64,000 bases of DNA from Prevotella sp. (GTDB taxonomy: Bacteria; Bacteroidota; Bacteroidia; Bacteroidales; Muribaculaceae). A program made the position numbers and the translations under genes. The stretch is from the NCBI GenBank assembly GCA_023662865.1, contig JAMPIK010000009.1, positions 3,791 to 67,790 of the forward strand, read 5' to 3'. The stretch's first letter is position 1. Every line of letters begins with the position of its first letter. This document shows positions 9,512-61,487 of the stretch, piece by piece. Below the pieces are notes generated by a model. The model was not told where the DNA came from. It saw only the letters and a program-made list of their open reading frames with translations, and made no database searches.

Positions 9512-9523
9512 ATCAGCAGAACC

Positions 9524-10816: not shown

Positions 10817-11031
10817 TGACAAATCTTTTCAGGAAGATATATACACTTTATGCCGACGGATTTCGCTCCATGACCGTGGGGCGAAGTCTGTGGCTTATGA
10901 TTGTCATAAAATTGCTTATTCTGTTTGCCGTGCTTAAAGTGTTCTTCTTCCCTGACCTGCTCTCTTCCGGCTACGACAACGACTCGGATCGCGCTGAAGC
11001 CGTACGCTCCACATTCACAGACAAACGATAA
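10816..11031 (+). CDS. DUF4492 small membrane protein, cydAB-associated
   Basis: LYADGFRSMTVGRSLWLMIVIKLLILFAVLKVFFFP; lies immediately before cydA. Confidence 0.85.
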   Translation: MTNLFRKIYTLYADGFRSMTVGRSLWLMIVIKLLILFAVLKVFFFPDLLSSGYDNDSDRAEAVRSTFTDKR

Positions 11032-11037
11032 ATAAAT

Positions 11038-32623: not shown

Positions 32624-32651
32624 GACATACTCTAATTCCCGCCCCCGACTT

Positions 32652-33440
32652 ATGAAACTAAATCTTGACAGGCCGCTGGTGTTTTTCGATTTGGAAACCA
32701 CCGGTGTTAATATCCATACCGACCGGATAATAGAGATTTCATGTGTGAAAGTCTTGCCCGATGGTACTCACCGCGAGTATACGCAAAGACTCAATCCGGA
32801 GAGGCCGATACCCGCCTCATCTACCGCCGTACACCATATCACCGATGAAATGGTGAAGGACGCTCCGACATTCGCCGACATTGCCGATAAGTTGATGATG
32901 TCTTTCGAAGGTTGCGATATAGCCGGCTTCAACTCCAATAAGTTTGATATTCCGTTGTTGATGAAGGAGTTTGAACGCGTAGGCAAGCAATTCTCTCTGA
33001 AAGGACGCAGACTTATTGATGTGCAGACCATTTATCACAAAATGGAGCAACGCACTTTGAGCGCGGCTTATCGTTATTACTGCAACAAAGAATTGCAGAA
33101 CGCCCATTCGGCAACAGCTGATACAATGGCTACGTACGAAGTGCTGATGGCTCAGCTTGATATGTATCCCGAAACCGATACTTTCGGCAACGATATGGAA
33201 AAGTTGGCTCGCTTCTCCGTTCAGGGTGGAAACGTTGACCTTTCCGGCAGGCTGTCGCGCAATGATGCCGATGAAATCGTCTTCAACTTCGGCAAGCATA
33301 AAGGCAAACCCGTTGAGGAGGTGTTCCGCAAAGAGCCGTCATATTACAGCTGGATTATGCAAGGAGACTTTGCCAAGGATATGAAGGATATTGTAACTCA
33401 AATATTTGTTAAGGCAAATCCCAAAAAGAGGCCGTCATGA
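32652..33440 (+). CDS. DnaQ-like DEDDh 3'-5' exonuclease
   Basis: FFDLETTG, GFNSNKFD, AHSATADT; C-terminal FNFGKHKG. Confidence 0.92.
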   Translation: MKLNLDRPLVFFDLETTGVNIHTDRIIEISCVKVLPDGTHREYTQRLNPERPIPASSTAVHHITDEMVKDAPTFADIADKLMMSFEGCDIAGFNSNKFDIPLLMKEFERVGKQFSLKGRRLIDVQTIYHKMEQRTLSAAYRYYCNKELQNAHSATADTMATYEVLMAQLDMYPETDTFGNDMEKLARFSVQGGNVDLSGRLSRNDADEIVFNFGKHKGKPVEEVFRKEPSYYSWIMQGDFAKDMKDIVTQIFVKANPKKRPS

Positions 33441-34639: not shown

Positions 34640-35553
34640 AAATGTTGAAAAGTTACATATTTGCTTTTTTCGCTTGTATTGCAGGCTGTTTTGCCCTTTG
34701 CGCTCAAGAACTCAATTGCACGGTGGAGATAAACTCATCAAAGATTGAGGGCACGGACAAAAGTCCGTTCGAGGAATTGCAAGAGGCTATTACCGAATAC
34801 ATCAACACTCGCAAATGGACCAACACGCAAGTTGCCGTGAATGAAAAAATCGAGTGTCGTATGTTCTTCACCATAAGCAAATATGAAGACGAAAAGTTTA
34901 CAGGCGACCTGCAGGTGCAGCTCTCACGCCCGGTTTACAATTCAACATACACCACCCCCTTGCTGAACTTCAAGGATACCAAAATTGAATTCACCCACCG
35001 GCGAGGCGAACCCCTGAATTTCAACGATGCTGCATGGGAGGACAACCTTACCGGGATTTTAAACTATTACGCTTATCTGTTCCTTGCAATTGACTTTGAC
35101 TCCTTCTCCCCGCTTGGCGGACAGCCTTATTTTGACAAAGTTGCATCAATAGTACAAATGGCTCAGAGCAGCGGCGAAACCGGTTGGCGTGCTTTCGAAG
35201 ATACGAAAAACAGAAGTGCCGTGCTTTCCTCCTATACCGATGCCGCCACTTCCGGCATACGCGAGCTTATATATATATATCACCGTAAAGGCCTTGACGA
35301 AATGGTGACAAGCCCCGACAAGGGACGCGCCGCAATCACGGAGTCTCTCCAAAAGTTGCAGCAGATACATAAGGCCGCTCCAATGAGTGTAGCTCTTTCG
35401 ATATTCAAAGATACCAAGCTCGACGAGCTTGTGAATGTCTACTCTCAGGCTCCGGAGAGCGAGCGCACGGATGTTTATAACCTGCTTAAAGAAATTTATC
35501 CGACAGAAACGGAACGTTTGGAGAAAATCCGAAACCCCGAGCCTGTTAGATAA
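34636..35553 (+). CDS. DUF4835 family protein (T9SS component PorD-like)
   Basis: Signal peptide then QELNCTVEIN; RPVYNSTYTTPLLNFKD. Confidence 0.8.
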   Translation: MKMLKSYIFAFFACIAGCFALCAQELNCTVEINSSKIEGTDKSPFEELQEAITEYINTRKWTNTQVAVNEKIECRMFFTISKYEDEKFTGDLQVQLSRPVYNSTYTTPLLNFKDTKIEFTHRRGEPLNFNDAAWEDNLTGILNYYAYLFLAIDFDSFSPLGGQPYFDKVASIVQMAQSSGETGWRAFEDTKNRSAVLSSYTDAATSGIRELIYIYHRKGLDEMVTSPDKGRAAITESLQKLQQIHKAAPMSVALSIFKDTKLDELVNVYSQAPESERTDVYNLLKEIYPTETERLEKIRNPEPVR

Positions 35554-43865: not shown

Positions 43866-45989
43866 ATGGCTAAAAACGAAGATCTGAATTTAACCAGAAA
43901 TATCGGCATCATGGCTCATATTGATGCCGGCAAAACCACTACCTCCGAGCGTATCCTTTTCTACACCGGTCTGACTCACAAGATTGGTGAGGTGCACGAT
44001 GGTGCCGCTACAATGGACTGGATGGAGCAGGAGCAGGAACGTGGTATTACAATTACTTCCGCCGCTACCACCACTTTCTGGAACTACAACGGCAAGAAGT
44101 ATAAAATCAACCTGATTGACACTCCGGGACACGTTGACTTTACCGTTGAGGTGGAGCGTTCATTGCGTGTGCTTGACGGTGCCGTGGCTGCCTTCTGCGC
44201 CGTTGGCGGTGTAGAACCCCAGTCAGAGACAGTATGGCGTCAGGCTGAAAAATACAATGTTCCCCGTATTGGCTACGTAAACAAAATGGACCGTTCAGGT
44301 GCTAACTTCTTTGAGGTTGTACGTCAGGTGAAAGATGTGCTCGGTGCAACTCCGCTGCCCATCCAGATACCTATCGGTGCCGAAGAAACATTCAAAGGCG
44401 TTGTGGACCTCGTGATTATGAAGGCTATCTTCTGGCACGATGAAACAATGGGTGCTGAATATTCCGTAGAGGAAATTCCTGCAAACCTTCAGGCAGAAGC
44501 CGATGAATGGCGCGACAAAATGCTTGAGACTCTCGCTGAGTTTGACGAGGCTCTCATGGAGAAATATTTTGATGACCCCTCCACTATTACAGTAGACGAA
44601 ATCAAGGCCGCTATCCGCAAAGCTACTCTCGCGATGCAGATTAACCCCATGATTTGCGGTTCATCATTCAAAAACAAAGGCGTACAGACTTTGCTTGACG
44701 CGGTTTGCGCATACTTGCCTTCACCCGAAGACACCGGCGCAATCGAGGGCACCCTGCCCGGCGACCCCGACAGCATTGAGACTCGTAAACCGCTCCCCGA
44801 AGAGCCTATGTGTGCTCTCGCGTTCAAGATTGCAACTGACCCCTATGTAGGTCGTCTTTGCTTCTTCCGCGTTTACTCCGGTGAGATTGAGGCCGGTTCT
44901 TATTGCTTCAACTCTCGTTCCGGCAAGAAAGAACGTATCTCACGTCTGTTCCAGATGCACTCCAACAAGCAGAACCCGAAAGAGAAAATCGGTTGCGGTG
45001 ATATCGGCGCCGGTGTAGGTTTCAAGGATATCCGTACCGGTGACACTCTCTGCGCGGAAGACCACCCTATCGTGCTTGAGGCTATGGAATTCCCCGATCC
45101 CGTGATTGGTATTGCTGTAGAACCCAAGACTCAGAAAGACCTTGACAAACTCGGCGTAGGTCTGCAGAAGCTTGCCGAGGAAGACCCCACATTCCGCGTT
45201 GAGACAAACGAGGAGACCGGCCAGACAGTTATCTCCGGTATGGGTGAGCTCCACCTCGACATCATCATCGACCGTCTGAAACGTGAGTTCAAGGTTGAAT
45301 GTAATCAAGGTCGTCCGCAAGTTACTTACAAAGAAGCTATCACCCGGCCGGTTGAACTTCGCGAAGTATTCAAGAAGCAGACCGGTGGTCGCGGTAAGTT
45401 CGCAGACATTATCGTACGCGTAGAGCCTGCCGATGATGACTTTGAAGGTTCACTTCAGTTTATCGACGAGGTTAAGGGCGGTAACGTACCTAAGGAGTAT
45501 ATCCCCTCCGTACAGAAGGGCTTTACAACAGCAATGAAGAACGGTGTGCTCGCCGGCTACCCGGTAGAACGTCTGAAAGTTACATTGCTCGACGGTTCAT
45601 TCCACCCCGTAGACTCCGACCAGCTTTCATTCGAGCTTTGCGCTATCCAAGCATTCAAGAAGGCTTCCGAGAAGGCCGGCCCGGTACTCATGGAGCCTAT
45701 CATGAAGATTGAGGTTGTGACTCCCGAGGAGAGCATGGGTGACGTAATCGGTGACCTTAACAAGCGTCGCGGTCAGATTGAAGGCATGGAGACAAGCCGT
45801 TCCGGCGCACGTATCGTGAAAGCAATCGCTCCGCTTGCCGAGATGTTCGGTTACGTAACTGCATTGCGTACCATCACTTCCGGTCGCGCTACAAGCACCA
45901 TGTCATTCTCACACTACGCAGAGGTTAGCTCATCTATCGCCAAGAATGTACTCACAGAAGTGCAAGGTCGTGTAGATTTGCTCAAATAA
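43866..45989 (+). CDS. fusA: Elongation factor G
   Basis: [28 protein letters not shown]. Confidence 0.99.
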
Positions 45990-46012
45990 TTTCTAAAAAA
46001 ACAAAACACAAT

Positions 46013-46318
46013 ATGAGCCAAAAAATCAGAATCAAACTCAAATCTTACGACCACAACCTCGTTGACAAGAGCGCCGAGAAGATCGTAAAGACTGTGAAGG
46101 CTACCGATGCAGTAGTGAGCGGCCCGATTCCACTGCCCACCTACAAGCGTATCTTCACCGTAAACCGCTCCACATTCGTTAACAAAAAGAGCCGCGAACA
46201 GTTCCAACTCTCATCTTATCAACGTCTTATAGATATCTATAGCTCAACTGCCAAAACAGTAGACGCGCTGATGAAGCTCGAACTCCCCTCCGGTGTTGAC
46301 GTAAGCATCAAGGTTTGA
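46013..46318 (+). CDS. rpsJ: 30S ribosomal protein S10
   Basis: [23 protein letters not shown]. Confidence 0.99.
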
Positions 46319-46412
46319 TATAACAAATAAATCTCATCGCATGGCGGGGCTACTTGTCGGCTGACATGCCCCCGCCCTGCAAACACAAACAATACAAATT
46401 TTTAATAAAGAA

Positions 46413-47027
46413 ATGCCAGGATTATTAGGAAAGAAAATCGGAATGACTTCCGTGTTCAGTGCCGACGGCAAGAACGTGCCGTGCACTGTTATCGAAGTAG
46501 GTCCTTGCGTGGTGACACAACTCAAGACCGTTGAGAAAGACGGCTACGAGGCAGTGCAGCTCGGCTTCCAAGAGAAGAAAGAGAAGCACACCAACAACCC
46601 CGAAGCCGGACACTTCAAGAAGGCCGGAGTAGCCCCGCAGCGCCACTTGGCTGAGTTCAAATTTGCTACCGCTCCCGCACTGGGTGAGACTCTCACTGTC
46701 GAGCTCTTTGAGGAAGGCGGATTTGTCGATGTTGTCGGCACAAGCAAAGGTAAAGGTTATCAGGGTGTTGTAAAACGCCACGGTTTCGGCGGTGTGGGTC
46801 AGAGTACTCACGGCCAGCACAACCGTCTGCGCGCACCCGGTTCTATCGGTGCCTGCTCCTATCCCGCCAAAGTGTTCAAAGGAATGCGCATGGCCGGCCA
46901 GATGGGCAACGAGCGTGTTACTGTGCAAAACCTGCAGATCATCAAGATTCTGCCCGAGCACAATCTGTTAATGGTGAAGGGTTCAATCCCCGGAGCTAAA
47001 GGTTCAATCGTTATAGTTGAGAAGTAA
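46413..47027 (+). CDS. rplC: 50S ribosomal protein L3
   Basis: [22 protein letters not shown]. Confidence 0.99.
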
Positions 47028-47662
47028 TGGAAGTAGCAGTATATAACATCAATGGTGAAGACACCGGACGCAAAGTAGTGCTCAACGACGCCGTGTTCGC
47101 AGTAGAGGCCTCAAGCGAGTCCAATCCCGCACATGTCGTATATCTCGACGTAAAACAGTATTTGGCCAACCAGCGCCAGGGTACCCACAAGAGCAAAGAA
47201 CGCAGCGAAGTGAGCGGTTCAACCCGCAAACTCGGTCGTCAAAAAGGTGGTGGCGGTGCTCGCCGCGGTGATATCAACTCACCCGTACTTATCGGCGGTG
47301 GCCGTGTATTCGGTCCCAAACCCCGCGACTATCGCTTCAAGCTCAACAAAAAGGTGAAACAACTCGCACGCCGCCTTGCTCTTACAAGCAAAGCTCAGGA
47401 AGGTGCCATCAAGGTTGTGGAGAACATTGTCTGGGATGCTCCCAAGACAAAGAACTTCATCGCCATGACAAAGGCTCTTCAGCTTGACGGCAAAAACGTA
47501 CTGCTCGTGCTCAACTCCGCAGACGAGAACATCGTCCGCTCAGTGCGCAATGTGCCCGGTTCATTCACAATGCTCGCTTCAAACCTGAACGCTTACACAG
47601 TGCTCAACAATCAGGCTATCGTACTGACTGAAGCAGCGGTTGAGACAGTTAACGCACTTTAA
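47027..47662 (+). CDS. rplD: 50S ribosomal protein L4
   Basis: [30 protein letters not shown]. Confidence 0.99.
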
Positions 47663-47693
47663 GTAAAACCACTAATAAGGAGTAAACACTATT

Positions 47694-47984
47694 ATGGACA
47701 TCCAGATTAAACCCATCGTAACCGAAAAGGCTACGAAAGCAAGCGAGAAGAACAATTGCTTCACCTTTGCAGTGTCTCCTGACGCCAACAAATATCAAAT
47801 CAAATCCCTGATTGAGCAGATGTATGGTGTCAAGGTGGTTAAAGTGAACACTGCCCTATATGCAGGCAAGCGCAAACAGCGTTGGACAAAAGGCGGACTC
47901 ATCAAGGGCTCCACAGCAGCATTCAAGAAGGCTTACGTCACAGTAGCCGAAGGACAGACAATCGACTATTACAGCAATTTATAA
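47694..47984 (+). CDS. rplW: 50S ribosomal protein L23
   Basis: PIVTEKA, ANKYQIK, KKAYVT. Confidence 0.98.
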   Translation: MDIQIKPIVTEKATKASEKNNCFTFAVSPDANKYQIKSLIEQMYGVKVVKVNTALYAGKRKQRWTKGGLIKGSTAAFKKAYVTVAEGQTIDYYSNL

Positions 47985-47990
47985 TAGAAA

Positions 47991-48818
47991 ATGGCAGTTA
48001 GAAAATTTAAGCCCACGACACCCGGGCAGCGACACAAAATTATTGGTGTATTCAAAGGAACAATCACTGCTACTACACCAGAGAAATCTCTTACCGTCGG
48101 CAAACGTTCCACCGGCGGACGCAACGCTGCCGGCCACCTTACAAACCGCTATCGCGGCGGCGGCCACAAGCGCAAACTCCGCTTCATCGACTTCAAGAGA
48201 GTAAAAGACGGTGTCCCCGCTACTGTAAAGAGCATTGAATACGATCCCAACCGTTCGGCTCGTATCGCTTTGCTTTACTATGTAGACGGTGAAAAAGCCT
48301 ATATGATTGCCCCCAACGGCCTGGAAGTAGGTCAGCAGGTAATCTCAGGTCCCGACGCAGCTCCCGAGGTAGGTAACGCCCTGCCTTTGGCTAAAATCCC
48401 TGTCGGTACCCTTATCCATTGTATTGAGCTGAGACCCGGTCAGGGTGCTTCCATGGCACGCAGCGCCGGTACATTCGCACAGCTCACTTCCCGTGAAGGT
48501 GACTATGCAATCATCAAATTGCCCTCCGGAGAGACCCGTAAAGTACTGCTCACCTGCAAAGCTACTATCGGTGTAGTCGGCAACTCCGACCACGCCCTTG
48601 AGCAAAGCGGTAAAGCAGGCCGCAGCCGCTGGTTGGGACGTCGTCCCCATAACCGCGGTGTTGTAATGAACCCTGTGGATCACCCCATGGGTGGTGGTGA
48701 AGGCCGTCAGAGTGGTGGTCATCCCCGTAGCCGCACAGGCCTCTACGCCAAGGGTCTGAAGACACGTGCTCCGAAGAAGAACTCTTCCAAGTACATCATT
48801 GAAAGAAGGAAAAAGTAA
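47991..48818 (+). CDS. rplB: 50S ribosomal protein L2
   Basis: [26 protein letters not shown]. Confidence 0.99.
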
Positions 48819-48841
48819 TTGATTAAGTAAAGTCACAACAC

Positions 48842-49111
48842 ATGAGTCGTTCATTAAAAAAAGGACCCTTCATTTCCGTCAAGCTTGAAAAGAAAGTAGC
48901 TGCCATGGACGAGTCCGGCAAAAAGTCCGTAATCAAGACTTGGAGCCGCGCCTCCATGATTTCTCCTGACTTCGTTGGCCACACTTTTGCAGTACACAAC
49001 GGCAATAAATTCATTCCCGTATATGTAACTGAAAACATGGTAGGTCACAAGCTCGGCGAATTTGCCCCCACTCGCAACTTCCGCGGTCATGCCGGCAACA
49101 AGAAAAAATAA
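48842..49111 (+). CDS. rpsS: 30S ribosomal protein S19
   Basis: [20 protein letters not shown]. Confidence 0.99.
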
Positions 49112-49154
49112 GGCCCGAATCATCAAATCACGATAAAAGAAGAAACAAAATACA

Positions 49155-49559
49155 ATGGGTAAAAGAAAAAAAGAATCAGCTGAAGTAATTAAGGCTGCTC
49201 GCAAAAGCCAATACTTCGCCAAGCTGAATAATGTCCCCACTTCTCCGCGCAAAATGCGTCTGGTGGTTGACATGATTCGCGGCGTTGAAGTATTCAAGGC
49301 TCTCGGTATCCTTAAATTCTCAAATAAAGAAGCTGCGCGCCGCGTTGAGAAACTTCTCCGTTCAGCCATTGCTAACTGGGAACAGAAAAACGAGCGCAAA
49401 GCCGAGCAAGGCGAACTCGTGGTTTCTACCGTATTTGTAGACTGCGCTCCCATGCTCAAGCGTCTGCGTCCCGCACCCCAAGGTCGCGGCTACCGTATCC
49501 GCAAACGCTCCAACCACGTGACACTGTTTGTTGACTCAATAGATAACATTAACGCTTAA
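49155..49559 (+). CDS. rplV: 50S ribosomal protein L22
   Basis: [23 protein letters not shown]. Confidence 0.98.
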
Positions 49560-49569
49560 CTAAGACAAG

Positions 49570-50313
49570 ATGGGACAGAAAGTTAATCCTATTAGCAACC
49601 GTTTGGGTGTAATCCGCGGTTGGGACTCAAATTGGTACGGCGGCAAGAAATACGGTGATATCCTGCTCGAGGACTCCAAAATCCGCAAATACCTGCACAC
49701 CCGTCTTGCCAAAGCAAGCGTATCGCGAGTAATTATCGAACGTACCCTGAAGATGGTCACTGTGACTATCTGCACATCTCGCCCCGGTATGATTATCGGT
49801 CGCGGAGGTCAGGATGTTGACAACCTCAAAAAGGAGCTCGTTAAGCTCACCGGCAAAGATGTTCAGGTAAATGTACACGAAATCAAACGCCCCGAGCTTG
49901 ACGCCGAACTTGTTGCCGCCAACATTGCACGTCAAATCGAAAACAAAGTGGCTTACCGCCGCGCTGTCAAGAAAGCCGTGCAAGACACAATGCGCATGGG
50001 TGCCGAAGGTATCAAGGTGCAAGTTTCAGGGCGTCTGAACGGTGCTGAAATGGCTCGCTCCGAGATGTTTAAAGAAGGCCGCACTCCGCTGCACACACTT
50101 CGTGCCGACATCGACTATGCTTTGGTTGAAGCTCTCACCAAAGTTGGTATCATTGGTATCAAGGTGTGGATTTGCCGTGGCGAAGTTTATGGCAAGCGTG
50201 AACTCACTCCGCAATATACAGCTGCTGACAACAAGGGTGGCCGCCGTGACTTCGGCGGTGACCGTCGTGAAGGCCGTCGCGGAGGTTTCCGTAAAAGAAA
50301 CAACAATCGTTAA
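49570..50313 (+). CDS. rpsC: 30S ribosomal protein S3
   Basis: [27 protein letters not shown]. Confidence 0.99.
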
Positions 50314-50332
50314 TCTGTAAATCAACAAGACA

Positions 50333-50764
<432 letters not shown>

Positions 50765-50780
50765 TCATTAGATAATCCTT

Positions 50781-50826
50781 AAAGAGTCGGAACTCTCTTG
50801 CGAGCTCCGACTCTTTTGTGTTTTTA
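50781..50826 (+). terminator. Intrinsic terminator inside the S10 operon, directly after rplP
   Basis: AAAGAGTCGGA / TCCGACTCTTT 11-bp stem plus an inner CTC/GAG pair, followed by T-GTG-TTTTT. Confidence 0.8.
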
Positions 50827-51387
50827 CACAGACAACAACGCTGAATATACCTGACAATATGCTTAAGAACAACCCCGCAGGTAAAAATTTTCTCATGCAA
50901 TTTTTTGCGAACAAGATAGTGCTTTTCAATTTCTTGTTATCGCTGATAATTGCTCTCGGCTTTTATTGGTTTCCCTACATCAGTGACGATCTGATGTTTA
51001 TCGAAAGAGCGTATGCCAACATAGATGTCCTTGCCCCCAAGCTTTTTTCGCAACCTACTCCCGAAATAATTGCTGACTATTTCGTATCTGTCGACGGGCG
51101 ACTGGCTAATACAGTGTTCATGCTGCTGTTATACCTGCCAAAATTCTTTTTCTTTCTGATTTCATGGTCTGCTCTTCTAATTTTATTCCAAATTGGAGGC
51201 AAACTCGCGTCAATAAAAAGTTTCAATGCAAATATTCTGTACACTCTGTATGTTGCGTTGTGCTTTCCATGGACAGACCAAATGTATATAGGTGTATTCC
51301 AAAGTAATTACCTTTGGTCATGTGTCGGAGCAGTGTTATTGCTTTATTTATTGCAGCATAAAAAAGTGAACGGTATAGCCTCATTTA

Positions 51388-52283
51388 GAGCTTGTTTAAA
51401 AACAAATGTGAATAAAAAAGAGCATCCAATCAAGCAATCAGGCATTTACGCTTTTGCGATTGTTTATAAGATAGTAAAAACGCAAACAAAAGTAAAGCGA
51501 TATGTATCTGACCGATTTGACCGATGCTCAAAAAGAGTTTATAAGAGGAACAATTTTGATGGACAATTGGCGTAGCAAATATGACTTTTTTCTCATACTC
51601 GATGCCATAATTTTTATTGATGTCAGTGGGTGTCACTGGCGTCTTCTCCCCAAAGAATATCCAAAGTGGCAGATAGTATATTACTATTTTCGACGATGGG
51701 GCGCTATGGACGCTTTTGCCGCACTTGAGGATGAACTCGTACAGAAGGTAAGGCTCAAACGGGGAGAGTCTGCAACGCCAACCATTGGAGCAATTGACAG
51801 TGAGAGTTCTCGTTCTGCACTTCCACGCTCTCAAAAAGGCATTGATGGCAATAAGAAAGTTAAAGGTGTGAAACGCAATATAATAACCGACAAAGATGGA
51901 GATATATTGGAGGCCACAACCACTCCAGCTAACGTACATGACTCCAAATCCGCCTACGCTTTGGTCGCTCTGCTTGTAGTTGCTTTTCCATGGATTAAGC
52001 GTATTTATGCCGACCGTGGATACAGAGGAAATTTTGTAGAGGCTGCCAAGCATGATTTCGGAATAGACGTGGAAATAACACATTCCAATTATAGCGGCAA
52101 GTTCGTCCCTGCCAAGAAAAGGTGGGTTGTAGAACGCACGTTTGCGTGGCTTGACAATTTCCGACGGCTCTGTCGAAACTACGAGGAGACGACAGCTTCG
52201 GCTAATGAAATGCTCATGGTGGCCGCTGTCGTTATCTCGCTTCGTAAACTGACTTCTGTTAACAATCATTTTTAAACAACCTC
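51388..52283 (+). mobile_element. IS5 family insertion sequence (IS1031-like subgroup), 896 bp
   Basis: 15-bp TIRs GAGCTTGTTTAAAAA / TTTTTAAACAACCTC (one mismatch); TTA target duplication at 51385-51387 and 52284-52286. Confidence 0.95.
51502..52275 (+). CDS. IS5 family DDE transposase, intact
   Basis: MYLTDLTDAQ N-domain, WRLLPKEYPKWQIVYYYF, AIDS, YADRGY, RWVVERTFAWL; stop codon lies in the right TIR. Confidence 0.95.
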   Translation: MYLTDLTDAQKEFIRGTILMDNWRSKYDFFLILDAIIFIDVSGCHWRLLPKEYPKWQIVYYYFRRWGAMDAFAALEDELVQKVRLKRGESATPTIGAIDSESSRSALPRSQKGIDGNKKVKGVKRNIITDKDGDILEATTTPANVHDSKSAYALVALLVVAFPWIKRIYADRGYRGNFVEAAKHDFGIDVEITHSNYSGKFVPAKKRWVVERTFAWLDNFRRLCRNYEETTASANEMLMVAAVVISLRKLTSVNNHF

Positions 52284-53468
52284 TTATATTCGCTTTACTG
52301 TTGGGCGCAACGAATGAGGCGATTTCCATACCATTGTTTTGTGGTATTTTCTTTGCATTGTTGTTTGTTAAGGAATATCGAAACTTTGCAAACCTCTCAG
52401 CTTGCACGGGACTGTTTATCGGCATATTATGGATACTGTTTTGCCACGATTATTTCGCCGCCCACGAATTTGAAGGCTATTTCGCCTCACGCCAATGGGT
52501 ATATCTGCCATATATATTGCCCACTCTGGTATTAGCCTGTATTGTAATAATCCGTTTGATTAAGACCAAGAAGATTGACTCGCAAACAATAATATACCTC
52601 GTAATCTCCTTAGCCTCAGTGTCAATAATGCTTAAAAGTCAATTCGGAGCAAGGGTAGGCAGTTTCTCGATAATTGTTTCAGGTATTGCACTCTTCAGCT
52701 CATTCAAAAAAGTAAATCGTGTACAAAAGAAGTATTTTTCATTGCTATGCATGTTGTTATCCGCATTTTTGATTGTACACTCGGTTACGGTAACATATCT
52801 TTGCTACAAGTCGAAAAGAATGGCTGATTATATGCTCAAGATATATGCAACCATGATTAAACGCGGTGATAAAGATACTACGTGCGTTATGAATATGACT
52901 TTGCGTGTGGATGCACCCGTAATTGCACTTCAAAAGCCTTATTTAGATTGGCTCGCGCATTATACCACGTTAAAAAGGTTTAACTATGTATATGGTAGAG
53001 CCGACAACTATAAAATCAATGTTTTCCCACAACAACTCATTATCGCACTCAATCATGAGGCATATGTCGCAATACCAGGTAATGCCGGATTGAAACGCAT
53101 CGGCAAATATCTTATAGGACCGCCATGTACTGAAAAAGTATTGACTCTTAACACCATACAAAGAGGTAAACCTCGCAAAGAAGATTACCATACCGTCAAT
53201 TTAAAATGGGGTAATGACACAATTGCATGGTATTATCCCGAACACACATCTTTAGCCACACTCATGCCGGGTTACATTGAGAAAGCCGACACATTGTGTG
53301 TTGAATAACAAACCAACTCCCGATTGAGTCGATGTCCTCGTAAAATAAGCGTCAAAATTAAGCACTCTAAGCCATAATATTGCAACATACATTAACATAA
53401 TTTAATAGAATTTAACACTAAAAAATCACCCTTAAAGCGTAAAAATAGCGTGTATCAGAGTAAGATTG

Positions 53469-53500
53469 TTTGGAAAACATGAAAAAAAGTTGTAATTTTG
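53469..53500 (+). promoter_or_regulatory. Internal promoter restarting the r-protein cluster at rpmC
   Basis: TTTG (53469-53472), 20 nt, TAATTTTG (53493-53500); leader of about 150 nt. Confidence 0.8.
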
Positions 53501-53657
53501 TGCGTTTGTTTGGCGAAACTTATGCCCGGAAGCGACAACTCTGAAAGAGTAAATGGCTGACTCTCAATTCGTTCTTGATTTTAAGGGCGATTTTGAGTTG
53601 TGTTGTATGGCGCAAGTTTTAACTGAATAAATGCGAGAAATAATAACTATTTGTATA

Positions 53658-53867
53658 ATGAAAAAGGAAGAAATCAAGGAATTAAGCATTCAAGAACTCC
53701 GCGACCGCTTAGAGGTTGCCGAGAAGGCTTATCGTGAATTGAAAGTAACGCACGCGATATCTCCTATTGACAATCCCGCAAAGATTACATTCGATCGTCG
53801 CGAGATTGCGCGTCTGAAGACCGTGTTGCGTCAGAAGGAAATGGCTGCGGCTGCAAGCAAGGCCTGA
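53658..53867 (+). CDS. rpmC: 50S ribosomal protein L29
   Basis: MKKEEIKELS, DNPAKI..RREIARLKT; start at ATG 53658. Confidence 0.96.
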   Translation: MKKEEIKELSIQELRDRLEVAEKAYRELKVTHAISPIDNPAKITFDRREIARLKTVLRQKEMAAAASKA

Positions 53868-53893
53868 ATCCCACTAAAACTTATCTGTAAGAA

Positions 53894-54151
53894 ATGGAAA
53901 AAAGACATTTAAGAAAAGAGAGAATCGGGGTGGTTTCCAGCAACAAGGGCGACAAGACCATCACTGTAGAAATCAAGTGGAAAGAGAAACACCCCATCTA
54001 TGGTAAGTTTGTCAACAAGACAAAAAAATACCATGCTCATGATGAAAAGAACGAGTGCTCTGTGGGCGACACCGTGCGCCTGATGGAAACTCGCCCTCTG
54101 AGCAAAACAAAGAGATGGAGACTAGTGGAAATAATTGAAAAAGTTAAGTAA
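53894..54151 (+). CDS. rpsQ: 30S ribosomal protein S17
   Basis: [28 protein letters not shown]. Confidence 0.99.
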
Positions 54152-54153
54152 CT

Positions 54154-54519
54154 ATGATACAGACTGAATCTCGATTGACAGTAGCAGATAACAGCGGCGC
54201 CAAAGAGGCCCTCTGTATCCATGTACTTGGCGGTACAGGCCGTCGTTATGCCACAGTTGGAGACATCATCGTAGTCTCTGTAAAGAGTGTTATCCCCTCT
54301 TCTGATGTTAAGAAAGGCACAGTGAGCAAAGCAGTTGTAGTTCGTACAAAGAAAGAGATACGTCGTGCCGACGGTTCTTACATTCGTTTTGACGATAACG
54401 CTTGCGTGCTTCTCAATAATGCAGGTGAGCTTCGCGGCAGCCGTATCTTCGGCCCCGTGGCTCGTGAGCTCCGCGCTACTAACATGAAAATCGTCTCCCT
54501 GGCTCCCGAAGTACTTTAA
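54154..54519 (+). CDS. rplN: 50S ribosomal protein L14
   Basis: [25 protein letters not shown]. Confidence 0.99.
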
Positions 54520-54542
54520 TCACTTAAAAGAACAAAGAAGAA

Positions 54543-54860
54543 ATGGCAAAATTCCATATAAAGAAGGGCGACAACGTTATCGTCATTGCCGGCGATGACA
54601 AAGGTCAGAAAGGACGTGTGCTCCAAGTTATCGTTAAGAAAGGACGCGCCGTGGTAGAAGGTGTCAACATGATTAAGAAAGCTACCAAACCCACAGCGCA
54701 ATATCCTCAGGGTGGCCTCATTGAGAAAGAAGCCCCGATTAATATCTCCAACCTCGCACTCATTGACCCCAAAAGTGGTAAGCCCACTCGTGTAGGTTAT
54801 CGTTTCGAGGACGGCAAGAAAGTACGTTATTCAAAAAAATCAGGAGAGGAGATTAAGTAA
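54543..54860 (+). CDS. rplX: 50S ribosomal protein L24
   Basis: [24 protein letters not shown]. Confidence 0.99.
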
Positions 54861-55405
54861 TGAGCACAACACTTAGCAAAGACTATAAGGAACGTATTGT
54901 TCCGGCTCTCACCAAAGAGTTTGGCTACAAGACAGTAATGCAGGTGCCTCGCCTTGAGAAGATTGTTATCAATCAGGGTCTGGGCGATGCCACTCAGGAT
55001 AAAAAACTCATCGAGACTTCCATCAACGAGATTACAGCCATCACCGGCCAGAAGGCTGTGGCTACTCTCTCACGCAAAGATATCTCAAACTTCAAGCTGC
55101 GTAAGAAAATGCCCGTAGGCGTAATGGTGACTTTGCGCAAGGATCGTATGTACGAATTCCTCGAGCGTCTCGTGCGCGTGGCTCTGCCCCGTATCCGCGA
55201 CTTCAAAGGCATCAATGCAAAGCTTGATGGCCGCGGTAACTACACACTGGGTATCACCGAGCAAATCATCTTTCCCGAGATTAACATCGACAGCGTGCCC
55301 AAACTGAACGGTATGAACATCACATTCGTGACTTCCGCCAAAACCGATGAAGAAGGTTTTGCACTGCTCAAACAGTTTGGTTTACCCTTTAAAACAGAAA
55401 AATAA
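54860..55405 (+). CDS. rplE: 50S ribosomal protein L5
   Basis: [30 protein letters not shown]. Confidence 0.99.
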
Positions 55406-55707
55406 TGGCAAAGGAATCAATGAAGGCGCGCGAAGTAAAGCGCCAGAAAATGGTGGCTAAATATGCAGAGCGTAAAGCTGCACTCAAAAAAGCAGCCCTT
55501 GCTGATGCTGATGGCAACATTGACTACGAAGCTCTTACCAAGCTGCAGAAGCTCCCCAAAAACGCTTCTCGCGTACGTCTGCACAACCGCTGCTCAATTA
55601 CCGGCCGCCCCAAAGGTTATATGCGCCAGTTTGGTATCTCACGTATTCAATTCCGCGAGATGGCAAGCGCAGGTCTTATACCCGGTGTGAAGAAAGCAAG
55701 TTGGTAA
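55405..55707 (+). CDS. rpsN: 30S ribosomal protein S14 (long, zinc-independent type)
   Basis: [31 protein letters not shown]. Confidence 0.98.
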
Positions 55708-55818
55708 TACGGCATTGAGTCCGAAGTCTTAAAAGGGACTCCCACCTAATACAAACACAGAAATCAGAGAGTATTAAATATTGTTCAGAATATCTGAATC
55801 AATTTAAACATCAAAACA

Positions 55819-56217
55819 ATGACTGATCCTATAGCAGATTATCTGACACGACTCAGGAATGCCATCAAAGCGGGTCACCGTGTAGTGGAAATCCCCGGGT
55901 CCAACCTCAAAAGAGAGATTACCAAAATCCTCTTTGAGCAGGGCTACATTCTGAATTACAAGTTTATGGAAGGTGACACACCCTCCGGTGTAATCAAGAT
56001 TGCCCTCAAGTATGATCCCATCGACAAGGTGAACGCCATCAAGGGCCTCAAACGTGTGAGCCGCCCCGGTCTTCGCCAGTACACCGGCTACAAAGATATG
56101 CCGCGCGTACTCAACGGTTTGGGTATCGCTGTCCTCTCTACATCAAGAGGTGTGATGACTAATAAAGAAGCCAAAGAACTCAAAATCGGCGGCGAAGTGT
56201 TATGCTACGTTTATTAA
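55819..56217 (+). CDS. rpsH: 30S ribosomal protein S8
   Basis: DPIADYLTRLRNA, SRPGLRQY, GGEVLCYV. Confidence 0.99.
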   Translation: MTDPIADYLTRLRNAIKAGHRVVEIPGSNLKREITKILFEQGYILNYKFMEGDTPSGVIKIALKYDPIDKVNAIKGLKRVSRPGLRQYTGYKDMPRVLNGLGIAVLSTSRGVMTNKEAKELKIGGEVLCYVY

Positions 56218-56235
56218 TAAAAAGGAGGTATTGAT

Positions 56236-56790
56236 ATGTCAAGAATTGGTAAATCACCCATTGCGATACCTGCCGGTGTAAACGTTCAGGTTAAAGATAA
56301 CACAGTAACAGTGAAAGGACCCAAAGGCGAACTTTCACAGGAGATTAATCCCGATATCAAGGTAGAAGTTGAAGACGGTCATATCGTAGTATCTCGTCCG
56401 AGTGATGATCGCGAGCACCGCGCAATGCACGGCTTGTACCGTGCCCTTATCCACAACATGGTAGTGGGTGTAAGCGAAGGCTACAAGAAGGAGATGGAGC
56501 TCGTAGGTGTCGGCTATCGTGCCACAAGCACCGGCCAGGTTCTCGAACTCGCCCTCGGCTTCTCTCATGCTATCTATATCAAACTCCCCAAGGAAATTAA
56601 AGTTGAAGCCAAGAGTGAGCGTAACAAAAATCCGCTCATCATTCTTGAAAGCGCCGACAAACAGCTCCTCGGTCAGGTATGCGCCAAGATTCGTTCACTG
56701 CGCAAGCCCGAGCCTTACAAGGGTAAAGGTATCAAGTTTGTGGGCGAAATTATTCGTCGCAAGTCCGGTAAGAGTGCAAATGCCAAATAA
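56236..56790 (+). CDS. rplF: 50S ribosomal protein L6
   Basis: MSRIGK, GPKGEL, PEPYKGKGI. Confidence 0.99.
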   Translation: MSRIGKSPIAIPAGVNVQVKDNTVTVKGPKGELSQEINPDIKVEVEDGHIVVSRPSDDREHRAMHGLYRALIHNMVVGVSEGYKKEMELVGVGYRATSTGQVLELALGFSHAIYIKLPKEIKVEAKSERNKNPLIILESADKQLLGQVCAKIRSLRKPEPYKGKGIKFVGEIIRRKSGKSANAK

Positions 56791-56807
56791 TTAAAATTTG
56801 AGAAGCA

Positions 56808-57149
56808 ATGATATCAAAGATAGCAAGAAGAAATAAAATCAAAGCACGCATCCGCGGACGTGTCCACGGCACTGCTTCACACCCCCGTATGAGTGTATTC
56901 CGCTCAAACAAGGCAATTTATGTGCAGCTCATTGATGATTTGGCGGGCAAGACACTCTGTGCAGCCGACTCAAAAGGCATTGCTGAGGGCACAAAAACCG
57001 AGATTAGCGCCAAGGTTGGCGAAAAAGTAGCTCAAAAAGCTATGGAAATGGGTATCACCGAAGTGGTTTTCGACCGAAACGGTTACCTGTTCCACGGCAG
57101 AGTAAAATCATTGGCCGATGCAGCTCGCAAGGCCGGTCTTAAATTCTAA
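56808..57149 (+). CDS. rplR: 50S ribosomal protein L18
   Basis: [24 protein letters not shown]. Confidence 0.99.
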
Positions 57150-57157
57150 ACACAGAT

Positions 57158-57679
57158 ATGGCAACAAAGAACAACAGAGTAAAATCTACAAATGATTTGG
57201 AGCTGCAAGACCGCCTGGTAGCTATCAACCGCGTTACAAAAGTAACCAAAGGTGGCCGCGCGTTCAGCTTCGCAGCCATTGTTGTGGTAGGTAACGGCGA
57301 CGGCGTTATAGGCTGGGGCCTTGGTAAAGCCAATGAGGTAACAGCAGCTATCGCCAAAGGCGTTGAAGCAGCTAAGAAGAACCTTATCCGCGTACCCGTT
57401 CACAACGGTACAATTCCTCACGAGCAAGTTGCAAAATTCGGCGGCAGCCGCATCTTCCTCAAACCGGCTTCTACCGGTACCGGAGTAAAAGCCGGTGGTG
57501 CAATGCGTGCCGTGCTCGAGAGTGTCGGTGTAACCGACGTGCTTGCAAAGAGCAAAGGTTCTTCCAACCCTCACAACCTTGTGAAAGCTACAATCGCAGC
57601 TCTCGGAGAAATGCGCAGCCCCGCCCAAGTAGCTCAAAACCGCGGTATCTCCGTAGATAAAGTCTTTAACGGTAAATAA
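57158..57679 (+). CDS. rpsE: 30S ribosomal protein S5
   Basis: [18 protein letters not shown]. Confidence 0.99.
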
Positions 57680-57692
57680 TTCAGTAAACACA

Positions 57693-57872
57693 ATGGCAAA
57701 AATCATAATCAAGCAAATCAAGAGCCGCATCAATGCGCCTCACGATCAGAAGGCAACTCTCGATGCCCTCGGCCTGAAGAAGATGAACCACACAGTGGAG
57801 CACGAAGACAACCCCTGCATCATGGGCATGGTAAAGAAAGTGCACCACCTTGTTGAGGTGAAAAAGGCCTGA
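57693..57872 (+). CDS. rpmD: 50S ribosomal protein L30
   Basis: Not in ORF track; MAKIIIKQIKSRINAPHDQKATLDALGLKKMNHTVEHEDNPCIMGMVKKVHHLVEVKKA. Confidence 0.97.
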   Translation: MAKIIIKQIKSRINAPHDQKATLDALGLKKMNHTVEHEDNPCIMGMVKKVHHLVEVKKA

Positions 57873-58014
57873 GTAGCCGGTGTGTTTCTGAATGTTTTAA
57901 CAACAAAGATTTAACAAATTACGAGTCCTTCGGCTTCTGCGCTCACATCAATTCTCGGCAATGAGAACACGCCGCAAGCAAAGACAGACAAAGACTCACA
58001 AAATTCAGTAACTA

Positions 58015-58467
58015 ATGAAACTCGAATTAAATAATTTGCAGCCCGCAGTAGGCTCCAACAAGGATCGCAAGAGAATAGGTCGCGGTCCGGGTAGCGGTTA
58101 CGGCGGCACATCTACACGCGGTCACAAAGGTGCCAAGTCTCGTTCAGGCTACAAACATAAAGTAGGCTTCGAGGGTGGCCAGATGCCGCTCCAGCGTCGT
58201 GTGCCCAAGTTCGGCTTCAAGAATATCAACCGTGTTGAATACAAAGCTATCAACCTTGATGTACTTGAAACACTCGCAACGGCAAAAGACCTTGCAAAGA
58301 TTACGGTAGCCGACCTGCACGCAGCCGGCCTTGTGTCAAAGAACAGCCTCGTCAAGATTCTTGCCGGTGGCAAACTGACCAAGGCATTGGAGGTTGAGGC
58401 TAATGCCTTCTCCAAGACTGCAGAAGAGGCCATTGTGGCCGCAGGTGGTTCCGTAATTAAAAAATAA
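58015..58467 (+). CDS. rplO: 50S ribosomal protein L15
   Basis: RIGRGPGSG, GFEGGQMPL. Confidence 0.99.
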   Translation: MKLELNNLQPAVGSNKDRKRIGRGPGSGYGGTSTRGHKGAKSRSGYKHKVGFEGGQMPLQRRVPKFGFKNINRVEYKAINLDVLETLATAKDLAKITVADLHAAGLVSKNSLVKILAGGKLTKALEVEANAFSKTAEEAIVAAGGSVIKK

Positions 58468-58473
58468 TAAACA

Positions 58474-59820
58474 ATGGGATTTGTAAAAACAGTAAAAAAT
58501 ATCTGGAGCGTTGAAGATTTGCGCAAGCGCATTGGTATAACTCTGCTGCTTGTAATAATCTACCGCTTCGGTTGCTATGTGGTTCTGCCCGGTATCAATC
58601 CTGATGACCTGACCAAGCTCAAAGACTTTTCATCAGAGGGCTTGATGCAGCTTCTGGATATGTTCTCCGGCGGTGCATTCTCGCAAGCATCTATCTTTGC
58701 ACTCGGTATCATGCCTTATATCACAGCCTCCATTGTGATACAATTGCTCGGCATGGTTCTGCCCTCGTTCCAGAAGATGCAGCGCGAAGGCGAGAGCGGC
58801 AGAATGAAACTAAACCAATACACACGTTGGCTCACAGTTATTATTCTGTTGTTGCAGTCTCCCGCATACTTGCTTAACCTTAAGGCTCAAATCGGTGCTG
58901 CCGGAGCCCACGAGGCCGCAGCCGCAATCGGCGGATTGAATATTGCGTTCATGACAGTTATTCTGACTGCCGGCTCAATGTTCATCATGTGGCTTGGCGA
59001 ACGCATTGACCAGAAGGGTGTTGGCAACGGTATCTCGTTCATTATCCTTATCGGTATCATTGCACGCTTGCCCGAGGCCTTCATACAGGAATTCAGCCAG
59101 CGCTTGCTCAACTCTGCAGGTGGCGGTCTGGTAATGTTCCTTGTGGAAATCGTAATTCTGCTTGCAGTGATTGCCGGTGCCGTGCTTCTTGTACAAGGTA
59201 CACGCAAAGTGCCCGTACAATACGCAAAACGCATCGTCGGCAACAAGCAGTACGGCGGTGCTCGCCAATACATTCCCCTCAAGGTTAATGCAGCCGGTGT
59301 AATGCCAATCATCTTTGCTCAGGCATTGATGTTTATCCCGATGACACTGGCAGGTTTCAGCACAGAACATACCGGCTTCCTCGGTGCTCTGACAAATATG
59401 TACGGCTTTTGGTATAACCTCATCTATTTCCTGATGATTGTTGCCTTTACTTATTTCTATACCGCCATTACAGTGAGACCATCACAAATGGCAGAGGATA
59501 TGAAGCGCAACAACGGCTTTATCCCCGGTGTAAAACCCGGCAAGCCCACAGTTGAATACTTGGACACCATCATGAGCCGTATCACACTGCCCGGTTCCAT
59601 ATTCCTGGGTATTGTGGCTATCCTGCCCGCGATTGCGTATATTTGCGGTCTTAACCGCAGCTTCGCACAATTCTTCGGTGGAACTTCACTGCTGATTCTT
59701 GTAGGTGTGATTCTTGATACACTCCGTATAGTAGAAGGTCATCTCCTGATGCGCCACTATGACGGATTAATGAAAGACGGTCGCATCAAGGGTCGTACAA
59801 CAGGCAACAGCGCATTCTAA
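58474..59820 (+). CDS. secY: Preprotein translocase subunit SecY
   Basis: SIFALGIMPYITASI, LGERI..KGVGNG, GFIPGVKPG, GGTSLLI. Confidence 0.99.
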   Translation: MGFVKTVKNIWSVEDLRKRIGITLLLVIIYRFGCYVVLPGINPDDLTKLKDFSSEGLMQLLDMFSGGAFSQASIFALGIMPYITASIVIQLLGMVLPSFQKMQREGESGRMKLNQYTRWLTVIILLLQSPAYLLNLKAQIGAAGAHEAAAAIGGLNIAFMTVILTAGSMFIMWLGERIDQKGVGNGISFIILIGIIARLPEAFIQEFSQRLLNSAGGGLVMFLVEIVILLAVIAGAVLLVQGTRKVPVQYAKRIVGNKQYGGARQYIPLKVNAAGVMPIIFAQALMFIPMTLAGFSTEHTGFLGALTNMYGFWYNLIYFLMIVAFTYFYTAITVRPSQMAEDMKRNNGFIPGVKPGKPTVEYLDTIMSRITLPGSIFLGIVAILPAIAYICGLNRSFAQFFGGTSLLILVGVILDTLRIVEGHLLMRHYDGLMKDGRIKGRTTGNSAF

Positions 59821-59931
59821 AGCAGCTTAAATCTGAAGTGAGCCTAAATTTCCGGCTCACTTCAGAATATATCAAATAATCTGAGAATTCAATCCGAATC
59901 GGAACTGTTTCCGACACCGGGAGAAATTAAA

Positions 59932-60759
59932 ATGATATTTCTAAAGACATCTGAAGAAATAGAACTGGTGAGAGCCGCCTCCAATTTGTGCAGTCGCACA
60001 CTCGGAGAAGTGGCGAAATGGGTGGAACCCGGAGTTACAACTCAAAAGCTTGACTACATAGCTCGCGAGTTTATCTGTGACAACGGCGGCACACCCGCTT
60101 GTCTGGGTTATGGAGGATTTCCCGGTACATTGTGCATAGAAGTAAACGAAACGGTTGTACACGGTTTCCCATCAGGATATACTCTGAAAGAAGGAGATAT
60201 TGTAGGTACAGACTGCGTAGTAGAGCTTAACGGCTATCATGGTGACAGCTGCTATACATTCCCTGTCGGTAACGTAGATGAAGCCGTACTTCAATTGCTT
60301 GATGTAACCAAAGAAAGCCTATATAAAGGAATAGCCGCTGCACATGTGGGTCGCCGCATCGGTGATATTGCGAATGCCGTTCAGACATATTGCGAACGAC
60401 ATGGTTACAGTGTGGTTCGCGAGATGTGCGGTCACGGCATCGGACGCAAGATGCACGAAGATCCAGAAGTGCCTAATTACGGGCGCAAAGGTATCGGACC
60501 GGTACTGCGCAATGGTATGTGTATTTGTATTGAGCCCATGATAAATATGGGAAGCAAAAACATAGTCATTGAGCGTGACGGTTGGCAGTGTCACACACGC
60601 GACCGCAAACCCAGTGCACACTTCGAGCATACATTGGCAATGGTGAATGATTATGCTGAAGTGCTGACCACCTTCGAATATATTGAAGATGCGTTGCGTG
60701 CAAAGGGAAGTGTGATACCCGGTGAACCCCGAAACGTTTCACCGAAACAAGAAAATTGA
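59932..60759 (+). CDS. map: Methionine aminopeptidase type I
   Basis: VVHGFP, GDSC, CGHGIG, IEPM, SAHFEHT. Confidence 0.98.
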   Translation: MIFLKTSEEIELVRAASNLCSRTLGEVAKWVEPGVTTQKLDYIAREFICDNGGTPACLGYGGFPGTLCIEVNETVVHGFPSGYTLKEGDIVGTDCVVELNGYHGDSCYTFPVGNVDEAVLQLLDVTKESLYKGIAAAHVGRRIGDIANAVQTYCERHGYSVVREMCGHGIGRKMHEDPEVPNYGRKGIGPVLRNGMCICIEPMINMGSKNIVIERDGWQCHTRDRKPSAHFEHTLAMVNDYAEVLTTFEYIEDALRAKGSVIPGEPRNVSPKQEN

Positions 60760-61011: not shown

Positions 61012-61069
61012 GTCAACAGACACATATAGGGTCAAGTGATAAATTAATTAAATACATTAATAGGAAACA

Positions 61070-61186
61070 ATGAAAGTAAGAGCCTCAGTCAAGAAGCGCA
61101 CTCCCGACAGCAAGATTGTACGCCGTAAGGGAAGACTTTATGTTATCAACAAAAAAAATCCTAAGTACAAGCAGCGTCAGGGCTAA
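61070..61186 (+). CDS. rpmJ: 50S ribosomal protein L36 (cysteine-free type)
   Basis: Not in ORF track; [38 protein letters not shown]. Confidence 0.98.
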
Positions 61187-61454
61187 TGGTTCTGCTTGCC
61201 GAGAGCAATTTCGGCACATCCCGGTGTATTAATTTGCCTTAAAAAGAGCTAATTCTGCCTTAGATGGCGAATATTGACATTTGGATGTAAAAGAAGGATT
61301 TACTGTGCATATCGGCATATCCCGGGCTTTAGAACTATATTTTGTATGCTTGGAGGGTTTGATTCTGAAATTTAGACTTAATTAACAAATGCTAAAAATC
61401 ATATAAAACAGACCCGAAGGGAATGTTGTGTGCAGATAACTTCAATTTTTTTAT

Positions 61455-61462
61455 TAACTTTG
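61455..61462 (+). promoter_or_regulatory. -7 box of the alpha operon promoter
   Basis: TAACTTTG 25 nt before the rpsM ATG; TG-rich element about 22 nt upstream. Confidence 0.7.
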
Positions 61463-61487
61463 CAACAAAAATTTTTTAGCTAAGTAT

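Follow-up and report, generated by a model that had tools for sequence, protein, structure and literature searches.

The window analysed here is a stretch of 64,000 nucleotides (nt) from Prevotella sp., a member of the Muribaculaceae (assembly GCA_023662865.1, contig JAMPIK010000009.1, positions 3,791-67,790); the source is a metagenome-assembled genome (MAG), and the feature under study is the junction between the genes rplP and rpmC in its ribosomal protein (r-protein) gene cluster. No gene arrangement in bacteria is known to be more conserved than the str-S10-spc-alpha cluster, and few cases of its breakage are known. In a contiguous S10 operon rplP and rpmC adjoin or overlap each other. 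In the window, rplP (ribosomal protein L16; 50333-50764, plus strand; Pfam Ribosomal_L16, E 6.8e-54) is separated by 2893 bp from rpmC (ribosomal protein L29; 53658-53867, plus strand; Pfam Ribosomal_L29, E 1.5e-16), which is followed by rpsQ (ribosomal protein S17; 53894-54151, plus strand; Pfam Ribosomal_S17, E 4.6e-33). The start codon of rpmC is the ATG at 53658, and the N-terminus encoded there (MKKEE...) is common to all relatives. The interval contains, in this order, a terminator-like element, a membrane protein gene interrupted by an insertion sequence (IS), an AT-rich non-coding stretch, and a promoter with a leader, a layout in which rplP would be the last gene of an upstream transcription unit and rpmC the first gene of a downstream one.

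The terminator-like element occupies 50781-50826 on the plus strand (inverted repeat I10). Its hairpin, 50781-50816, begins 17 nt past the rplP stop codon and has arms at 50781-50795 and 50802-50816, which form a 15-bp stem with one mismatch around a 6-nt loop. It runs into the U-tract TTTTGTGTTTTT at 50815-50826, in which 10 of 12 nt are T and two G interrupt the run. RNA folding of the hairpin gave -24.8 kcal/mol with a z-score of -5.1, and none of 200 shuffled sequences was as stable; a repeat of the fold gave a z-score of -5.9. A simple consensus-based terminator scanner made no call at 50781-50826, which is probably attributable to the one internal mismatch of the stem. Equivalent hairpins are also present 3' of rplP in four related loci (L169, L178, L176 and L005), with z-scores from -5.5 to -7.9, and the U-tracts of several of these junction terminators are weak or interrupted. 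A reading made from the DNA letters without database searches (hereafter the sequence-only reading) had proposed an intrinsic terminator at this position, and the strong hairpin followed by a T-tract agrees with that proposal.

The sigma-AB-type promoters of Bacteroidetes have a consensus that consists of a -33 TTTG motif and a -7 TAnnTTTG motif with about 19-21 nt between them. Upstream of rpmC, at 53469-53500 on the plus strand, we found an exact match to this pattern, TTTG-N20-TAATTTTG, with the -33 motif at 53469-53472, a spacer of 20 nt and the -7 box at 53493-53500. The pattern as such is enriched in the window, where it occurs 11 times compared with 1.23 +/- 1.20 times in shuffled sequences (largest shuffle value 5), and from 41 to 64 kb there are only three intergenic -7 boxes on the plus strand, that of the rpmC promoter included. 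A scan for the sigma-70 consensus returned 8 promoter-like sites where 8.5 were expected, a result that carries no information in a Bacteroidetes genome. The promoter and the leader have orthologues in two related loci, L087 and L169, and the block TAATTTTGTGCGTTT(G/A)TTT(G/A)GCG is conserved in these and in the window while its flanks diverge. The L087 locus, which comes from a woodrat foregut metagenome, retains the promoter and leader blocks despite wholly different content upstream of them. The transcription start site (TSS) is predicted near 53506-53508. Another -7 box (TAACTTTG) is located at 61455, within a 476-bp intergenic gap (61012-61487) in the downstream r-protein region, and is probably the next promoter of the cluster.

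The promoter is preceded by an AT-rich non-coding stretch (53309-53468, plus strand), which from about 53385 onwards is homologous to the spacer of L169 in a MAFFT alignment, and it is followed by the 5' leader of the rpmC-led unit, of about 150 nt (53501-53657, plus strand). The G+C content (GC) of 53309-53657 is 33.8%. The leader folds with -38.3 kcal/mol (z-score -2.55), and the fold contains a predicted long-range helix of 12-13 bp, in which the first bases of the transcript (53502-53513) pair with 53623-53634, about 25 nt before the ATG, and enclose a variable domain. RNAalifold applied to the window, L087 and L169 retained this closing helix, although the comparison involves three sequences and one-sided changes only; both arms of the helix are the most conserved blocks of the leader across the three loci. 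Conservation of the helix is suggestive only, and the helix may serve the new transcription unit in regulation or processing. We found no match to an Rfam family with E <= 1 over 45000-60000, and the leader of rpmC is therefore none of the r-protein leaders described so far. The consensus promoter and the leader of about 150 nt had both been noted in the sequence-only reading; the promoter matches the Bacteroidetes pattern exactly at the coordinates given there, and the position of the rpmC start codon agrees with the leader length.

In order to determine how widely the junction is opened, we compared about 170 loci, namely 80 genome loci anchored on L16, 80 metagenome loci anchored on L29, and 8 places found through the exact L16 protein of the window, which is indexed in 437 blocks of public collections (24 contigs were read, and these correspond to the 8 distinct places). 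At 128 loci the rplP-rpmC junction measures 45 bp or less, mostly 6 bp, and it is about 6 bp in outgroup Bacteroidales. The subclade of Muribaculaceae to which the window belongs, which includes Sangeribacter, has spacers of 16-438 bp. Spacers of 71-438 bp are present at 25 distinct loci, all of which encode an L29 at least 77% identical to that of the window. Both a terminator-like hairpin with a T-tail and a TAnnTTTG box are found in 9 of the 25. A plus-strand -7 box is found in 10 of them, compared with a mean of 1.65 in shuffled spacers (maximum 6) and with 3 on the minus strand. Genomes with an L16 identical to that of the window have spacers of 62, 272, 326, 327 and 381 bp that are free of any inserted gene. 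The 381-bp spacer, from L169, consists of a hairpin of -28 kcal/mol and an AT-rich stretch, followed by TAATTTTGTGCGTTTATTTGGCG and a leader whose 3' end matches that of the window, and this locus looks like an empty site. Spacers among the relatives are very diverse in sequence: BLASTN of the two spacer pieces of the window against all loci retrieved only L087 besides the window's own genome, and the homology to the L169 spacer is visible only by global alignment with MAFFT. A second assembly, GCA_023663535.1, has a junction of identical structure. Cataloguing the interval across relatives, as the sequence-only reading had suggested, revealed spacers and differing contents. The split of the r-protein cluster between rplP and rpmC that it described is upheld by the second assembly, the 25 spacer loci, the orthologous promoter and the disconnected cluster of L178 (described below), and the split is not a peculiarity of one assembly, as that reading had allowed it might be.

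Several further features of these spacers were observed. The short ones (62-120 bp; L107, L093, L009, L010, L091 and L175) are made up largely of a single GC-rich hairpin; they lack a U-tract and a -7 box and may represent an early state of opening or an element of mRNA processing or stability. In the spacer at L008:5430-5872 a unit of some 30 nt, cgtagccgctgttgcttgcaac(g/t)gcggtaa, is present twice, and that of L098 contains its terminator hairpin in two tandem copies; these spacers seem to grow through local duplication. A block GCCGAATTTTT...AAGTAGGCAATATTT is conserved upstream of rpmC in the spacers of L111, L094, L108, L104 and L100/L097, where it constitutes a second, different element at the same position as the promoter region of the window.

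Between the terminator and the AT-rich stretch, the window carries a single protein-coding gene in two pieces, to which we refer as the cargo. Its 5' fragment (50859-51387, plus strand) comprises codons 1-176 plus 1 nt and joins in frame to the 3' fragment (52287-53308, plus strand), which comprises codons 177-516 and the stop codon. The pieces are separated by an IS of 896 bp (51388-52283, plus strand), with a left inverted repeat at 51388-51402 (GAGCTTGTTTAAAAA) and a right one at 52269-52283 (reverse complement GAGGTTGTTTAAAAA). These terminal repeats are 15 bp long and match at 14 of 15 positions, and the trinucleotide TTA, read directly from the sequence, stands on both sides of the element as a target-site duplication (51385-51387 and 52284-52286). 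The element encodes a DDE transposase of 257 aa (51502-52275, plus strand; the NCBI annotation starts at 51559) that matches Pfam DDE_Tnp_1 (PF01609, E 1.2e-20) and DUF4096 (PF13340, E 2.2e-13) as well as the NCBIfam model NF033580 transpos_IS5_3 (167.8 bits, cutoff 110 bits). In this transposase, in short inverted repeats starting with GAG and in a 3-bp duplication it resembles other members of the IS5 family, and it shows nothing unusual for that family. Excision of the IS together with one TTA yields an open reading frame (ORF) of 1551 nt without stops, encoding 516 aa. The cargo is a disrupted pseudogene in this genome. Where the sequence-only reading had described an AT-rich gene with multiple transmembrane (TM) segments, its composition and membrane character are as described, but what is present is two fragments of a pseudogene split by the IS.

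Copies of the IS with 97-99% identity and other flanks occur in two other samples, and an independent copy at L086 (L086:1-586, SRR18716850) has the same ends and TTA on both sides within unrelated DNA, which suggests a target preference for TTA. Between the window and GCA_023663535.1 there are nine single-nucleotide polymorphisms (SNPs), all within the IS (51456-52110), and none across 12.1 kb of flanks; given this distribution, the window represents either another assembly or another strain. Probably the IS is present in several copies, from which its consensus was blended. A candidate att-like repeat (50772-50787 and 53425-53440; 16 nt, 81% identity) was rejected, as the similarity is within chance.

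We then used the restored protein of 516 aa for homology searches. It matches the Pfam family PF19528 (DUF6056, labelled GT_STM0557_N in newer Pfam releases) over residues 20-378 with 32.5 bits (E 5.3e-08), a small margin over the cutoff of 27, and 22 of 49 aligned homologues match this family as well. An exhaustive HMMER search yielded 290 representatives of the cargo family, whose members are about 500 aa long, and the best full-length homologue is 33% identical and colinear with residues 23-507. A word-indexed search of 5.8 billion proteins found no intact copy of the cargo and only three distant homologues, none of which has a ribosomal genomic context. Searches of the cargo against the Protein Data Bank (PDB) by sequence and against PHROGs gave no match, and NCBIfam gave none either for the cargo or for the acyltransferase described below. 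In the alignment of 49 members, D43, R81, P137-W138-D140 and R299 are invariant, E187 is nearly so and D44 is conserved in at least 90% of the sequences; a motif FPxISDD lies directly after the first TM helix. The 5' fragment of the cargo carries D43-D44, R81 and P137-W138-D140.

The AlphaFold model of the restored protein (predicted local distance difference test, pLDDT, 91.2; predicted template modelling score, pTM, 0.91) has about 14 helices and, C-terminal to them, a beta-rich domain (residues 373-512), which is contained in the 3' fragment. The model has the multi-TM N-terminal module, the acidic first-loop motif and the C-terminal domain of the GT-C architecture. Its top structural matches in the PDB are all GT-C enzymes, namely ALG12, AftA, ArnT and STT3, then EmbA/B and AglB, and the scores are weak (for the first four, E 1.5e-3 to 3.4e-2 and TM-scores 0.32-0.43, with probabilities of 0.97-1.0). 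The Salmonella genes STM0557-STM0559 form a gtr locus that glucosylates O-antigen, with GtrC as the serotype-specific transferase (PMC3688519). Like the GtrC- and Oac-type enzymes of enterobacterial phages and islands, the cargo is a single accessory gene of a kind that alters surface glycans. It differs from the gtr locus in that no gtrA or gtrB was seen adjoining it, although no search was made for such partners; it has no prophage context, unlike phage gtr and Oac genes, and it has no identity to any characterised enzyme that can be detected at the sequence level. The cargo is best read as a GtrC-like surface glycosyltransferase of foreign origin, with a predicted dependence on lipid-linked sugars. 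Only two features speak for the foreign origin already proposed in the sequence-only reading, the composition of the gene (GC 38.9% compared with 48.2% for the window, within the lowest 0.3% of equal-sized windows) and its lack of close homologues. The stretch from the terminator to the start codon of the cargo (ATG at 50859) contains no TAnnTTTG box, in agreement with the earlier remark that the gene has no consensus promoter.

The same junction has other occupants in related genomes. In L005 (Sangeribacter sp., with an L16 99% identical to that of the window) and L176, the hairpin after rplP is followed by an Acyl_transf_3 gene, which starts 13 nt past the tail of the hairpin, and then by a reverse-strand gene. 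The two plus-strand cargo genes, the putative glycosyltransferase and the acyltransferase, begin 13-32 nt after the terminator, leaving no room for a recognisable promoter. An acyltransferase gene is likewise adjacent to rplP in L178, where it is 59% identical. The acyltransferase matches the phage O-acetyltransferase family phrog_3333, and a homologue with 63% identity is located in an ordinary GT4/capsule locus. In L005 (L005:2410-2495) a C7 tract (2419-2425) puts the gene out of frame with its ATG at 2410. One added C would give an ORF of about 358 aa (MNTPPP...RIEWLDTLR) like those of the intact homologues P0153-P0155, and the Pfam match spans only the correctly framed part. Slipped-strand phase variation, a pseudogene or an error of sequencing could each account for this frameshift.

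L087 has a reverse-strand Peptidase_C10/Inhibitor_I69 gene upstream of the rpmC promoter, and no rplP was found within 1.9 kb upstream of rpmC. Past rplP and the acyltransferase gene, L178 continues for at least 5 kb with opposite-strand genes, namely DUF4835, coaBC, an RNase T-like exonuclease gene and dnaN (6185-11062). Orthologues of dnaN, the RNase T-like gene, coaBC and DUF4835 lie at 31475-35553 in the window, where they precede the str/S10 genes and share the orientation of the r-protein genes. L178 therefore has an inversion-like rearrangement with one breakpoint exactly at the rplP|rpmC junction, and its cluster is physically disconnected there; the second breakpoint was not seen in this locus.

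Taken together, these observations make it likely that in one subclade of Muribaculaceae the rplP-rpmC junction has become a transcription-unit boundary, a permissive site that in the window holds decaying cargo. The upstream unit, from the str/S10 genes to rplP, would end at the hairpin, and a separate promoter with its leader of about 150 nt would restart transcription at rpmC and the genes after it. A gene for a membrane glycosyltransferase-like protein with a GT-C-like fold would have landed horizontally between the terminator and the promoter, and it was later broken by an IS5-family element. We infer that terminator and promoter are active, that the boundary preceded the cargo, and that the site is neutral, permissive rather than selected. 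Provided that neither half depends on the other for its transcription, insertions and rearrangement breakpoints in the spacer would be tolerated at little cost; and since the gene is disrupted by the IS, the 2.9-kb interval is to be regarded as decaying cargo and not as a working part of the ribosomal operon.

Several points weigh against this interpretation. The efficiency of the terminator is a prediction, and the order of events, with the boundary first and the cargo later, is a parsimony argument from few relatives with no dated phylogeny. By our simple criteria, 12 of the 25 spacers have neither a recognisable terminator nor a -7 box, so the boundary is not uniform in the clade. The acyltransferase gene has been kept immediately after the rplP terminator across 59-80% protein divergence, which hints at selection for its position rather than pure neutrality, and it may not be mere coincidence that a single slot has received two unrelated enzymes that modify surface glycans.

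A rival view, close to that of the sequence-only reading, is that the junction is a selected platform on which surface-glycan enzymes are expressed at a low level by leakage from a very strong, growth-rate-regulated transcript, and are switched on and off through IS insertion or homopolymer slippage. The starts of both plus-strand cargo types just behind the terminator tail with no -7 box between, the membership of both in classes of membrane enzymes that modify surface polysaccharides (GT_STM0557_N; Acyl_transf_3/phrog_3333), the lasting position of the acyltransferase, the imperfect U-tracts and the out-of-frame L005 copy at its C7 tract speak for such a platform. Yet the cargo of the window is dead and no intact copy was found anywhere searched, some genomes with an identical L16 have no cargo at all, and in L087 the neighbour of rpmC is on the opposite strand. 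The 63%-identical acyltransferase is at home in a locus of the ordinary kind, and the accessory genes of Bacteroidales are so rich in surface-glycan enzymes that two of them could arrive by chance. We regard selected read-through as unlikely. Coupling of expression to growth rate is moot in this genome, where the cargo is broken, and nothing shows selection for it in the relatives, since their cargo differs and in one case is on the opposite strand. The proposed cargo slot has some basis in the different genes at one junction and in their starts close behind the terminator. A stronger form of the idea, in which a leaky-terminator slot was itself selected, promoterless glycan enzymes were captured in it, and the rpmC promoter and leader helix serve as a compensating device, seems to us quite improbable. 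If it were true, the captured enzymes would be expressed at a minor fraction of r-protein transcription, which would tie surface decoration to growth rate, and an IS insertion or slippage in a poly-C tract would turn them off.

Neither a preferred target of integration nor an error of assembly accounts as well for the data. A mobile element or recombinase that targets the 3' end of rplP or the spacer, in the way that tRNA genes are targeted, would explain why at least three different contents are present at one junction in close relatives and why the insertion begins right after the rplP stop codon and terminator. But the cargo has neither an integrase or recombinase gene nor an att-like direct repeat at its flanks, the IS5-family element, the one mobile element present, lies inside the cargo and not at its edges, and the spacers have little sequence in common; such a hotspot is very improbable. 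There is hardly any chance that the structure is an artefact, either a chimeric join or a mis-scaffolded IS. The source is a MAG, and nine SNPs confined to the IS are typical of consensus calling over a multi-copy repeat; against this, two assemblies have the same structure, a contig of 516 kb runs without a break through the junctions at either side of the cargo, orthologues of the terminator and promoter that flank it occur in relatives, and neither a perfect target-site duplication nor restoration of the reading frame would be expected from a chimera.

The boundary that we consider likely fits the invasion-separation route of operon-cluster break-up, at an unusual position within the S10 operon. 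In this route, a few unrelated genes enter between transcription units of the cluster, and a second event disconnects the units fully (PMC8046335). The cases which that study examined in detail are located between the str, S10 and rpoBC operons or within the rpoBC operon of Gammaproteobacteria and Bacilli, and its main text contains no mention of rplP or rpmC (PMC8046335). As in the published cases, an unrelated gene and an IS are found between rplP and rpmC in the window, an acyltransferase gene is found there in L005, L176 and L178, and one relative, L178, is fully disconnected at the same junction. The states visible among close relatives are the tight junction, the non-coding spacer, the invaded spacer and the disconnected L178. 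In contrast to the published events, the break is in Bacteroidota and inside what in E. coli is the S10 operon, and that of the window comes with a terminator and a promoter that are new and with a leader that is conserved. Searching the literature for insertions at the rplP-rpmC junction yielded nothing specific.

A terminator/promoter boundary within a contiguous r-protein cluster is known from E. coli, where it separates the S10 and spc operons (rpsQ | rplN). The downstream unit of the window is likewise led by its own promoter and leader, but the boundary lies two genes further upstream, so that the downstream unit includes rpmC and rpsQ; its promoter has the TTTG/TAnnTTTG motifs of Bacteroidetes, and the leader matches no r-protein leader in Rfam. 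If our interpretation is correct, one family of gut bacteria displays the successive states of tight junction, terminator/promoter spacer, foreign invasion and separation, and, as the break is within the classical S10 operon and not between operons, it would be a concrete case of a new operon boundary followed by rearrangement. The junction is also a likely permissive ("safe harbour") insertion site for the engineering of Muribaculaceae, in which the strong native promoter and its leader would be usable. For genome annotation it calls for caution, as the two membrane ORFs and the transposase found here are one broken gene plus an IS.

The rplP-rpmC junction is not the only expanded one in these relatives. 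The rpsN-rpsH junction measures 111 bp in the window (55708-55818), and it is expanded to 763 bp in L170 (L170:7813-8575), 609 bp in L172 (L172:7814-8422) and 395 bp in L168 (L168:7768-8162), with no gene called in the expanded versions. The cluster seems to have been loosened at more than one point in this clade.

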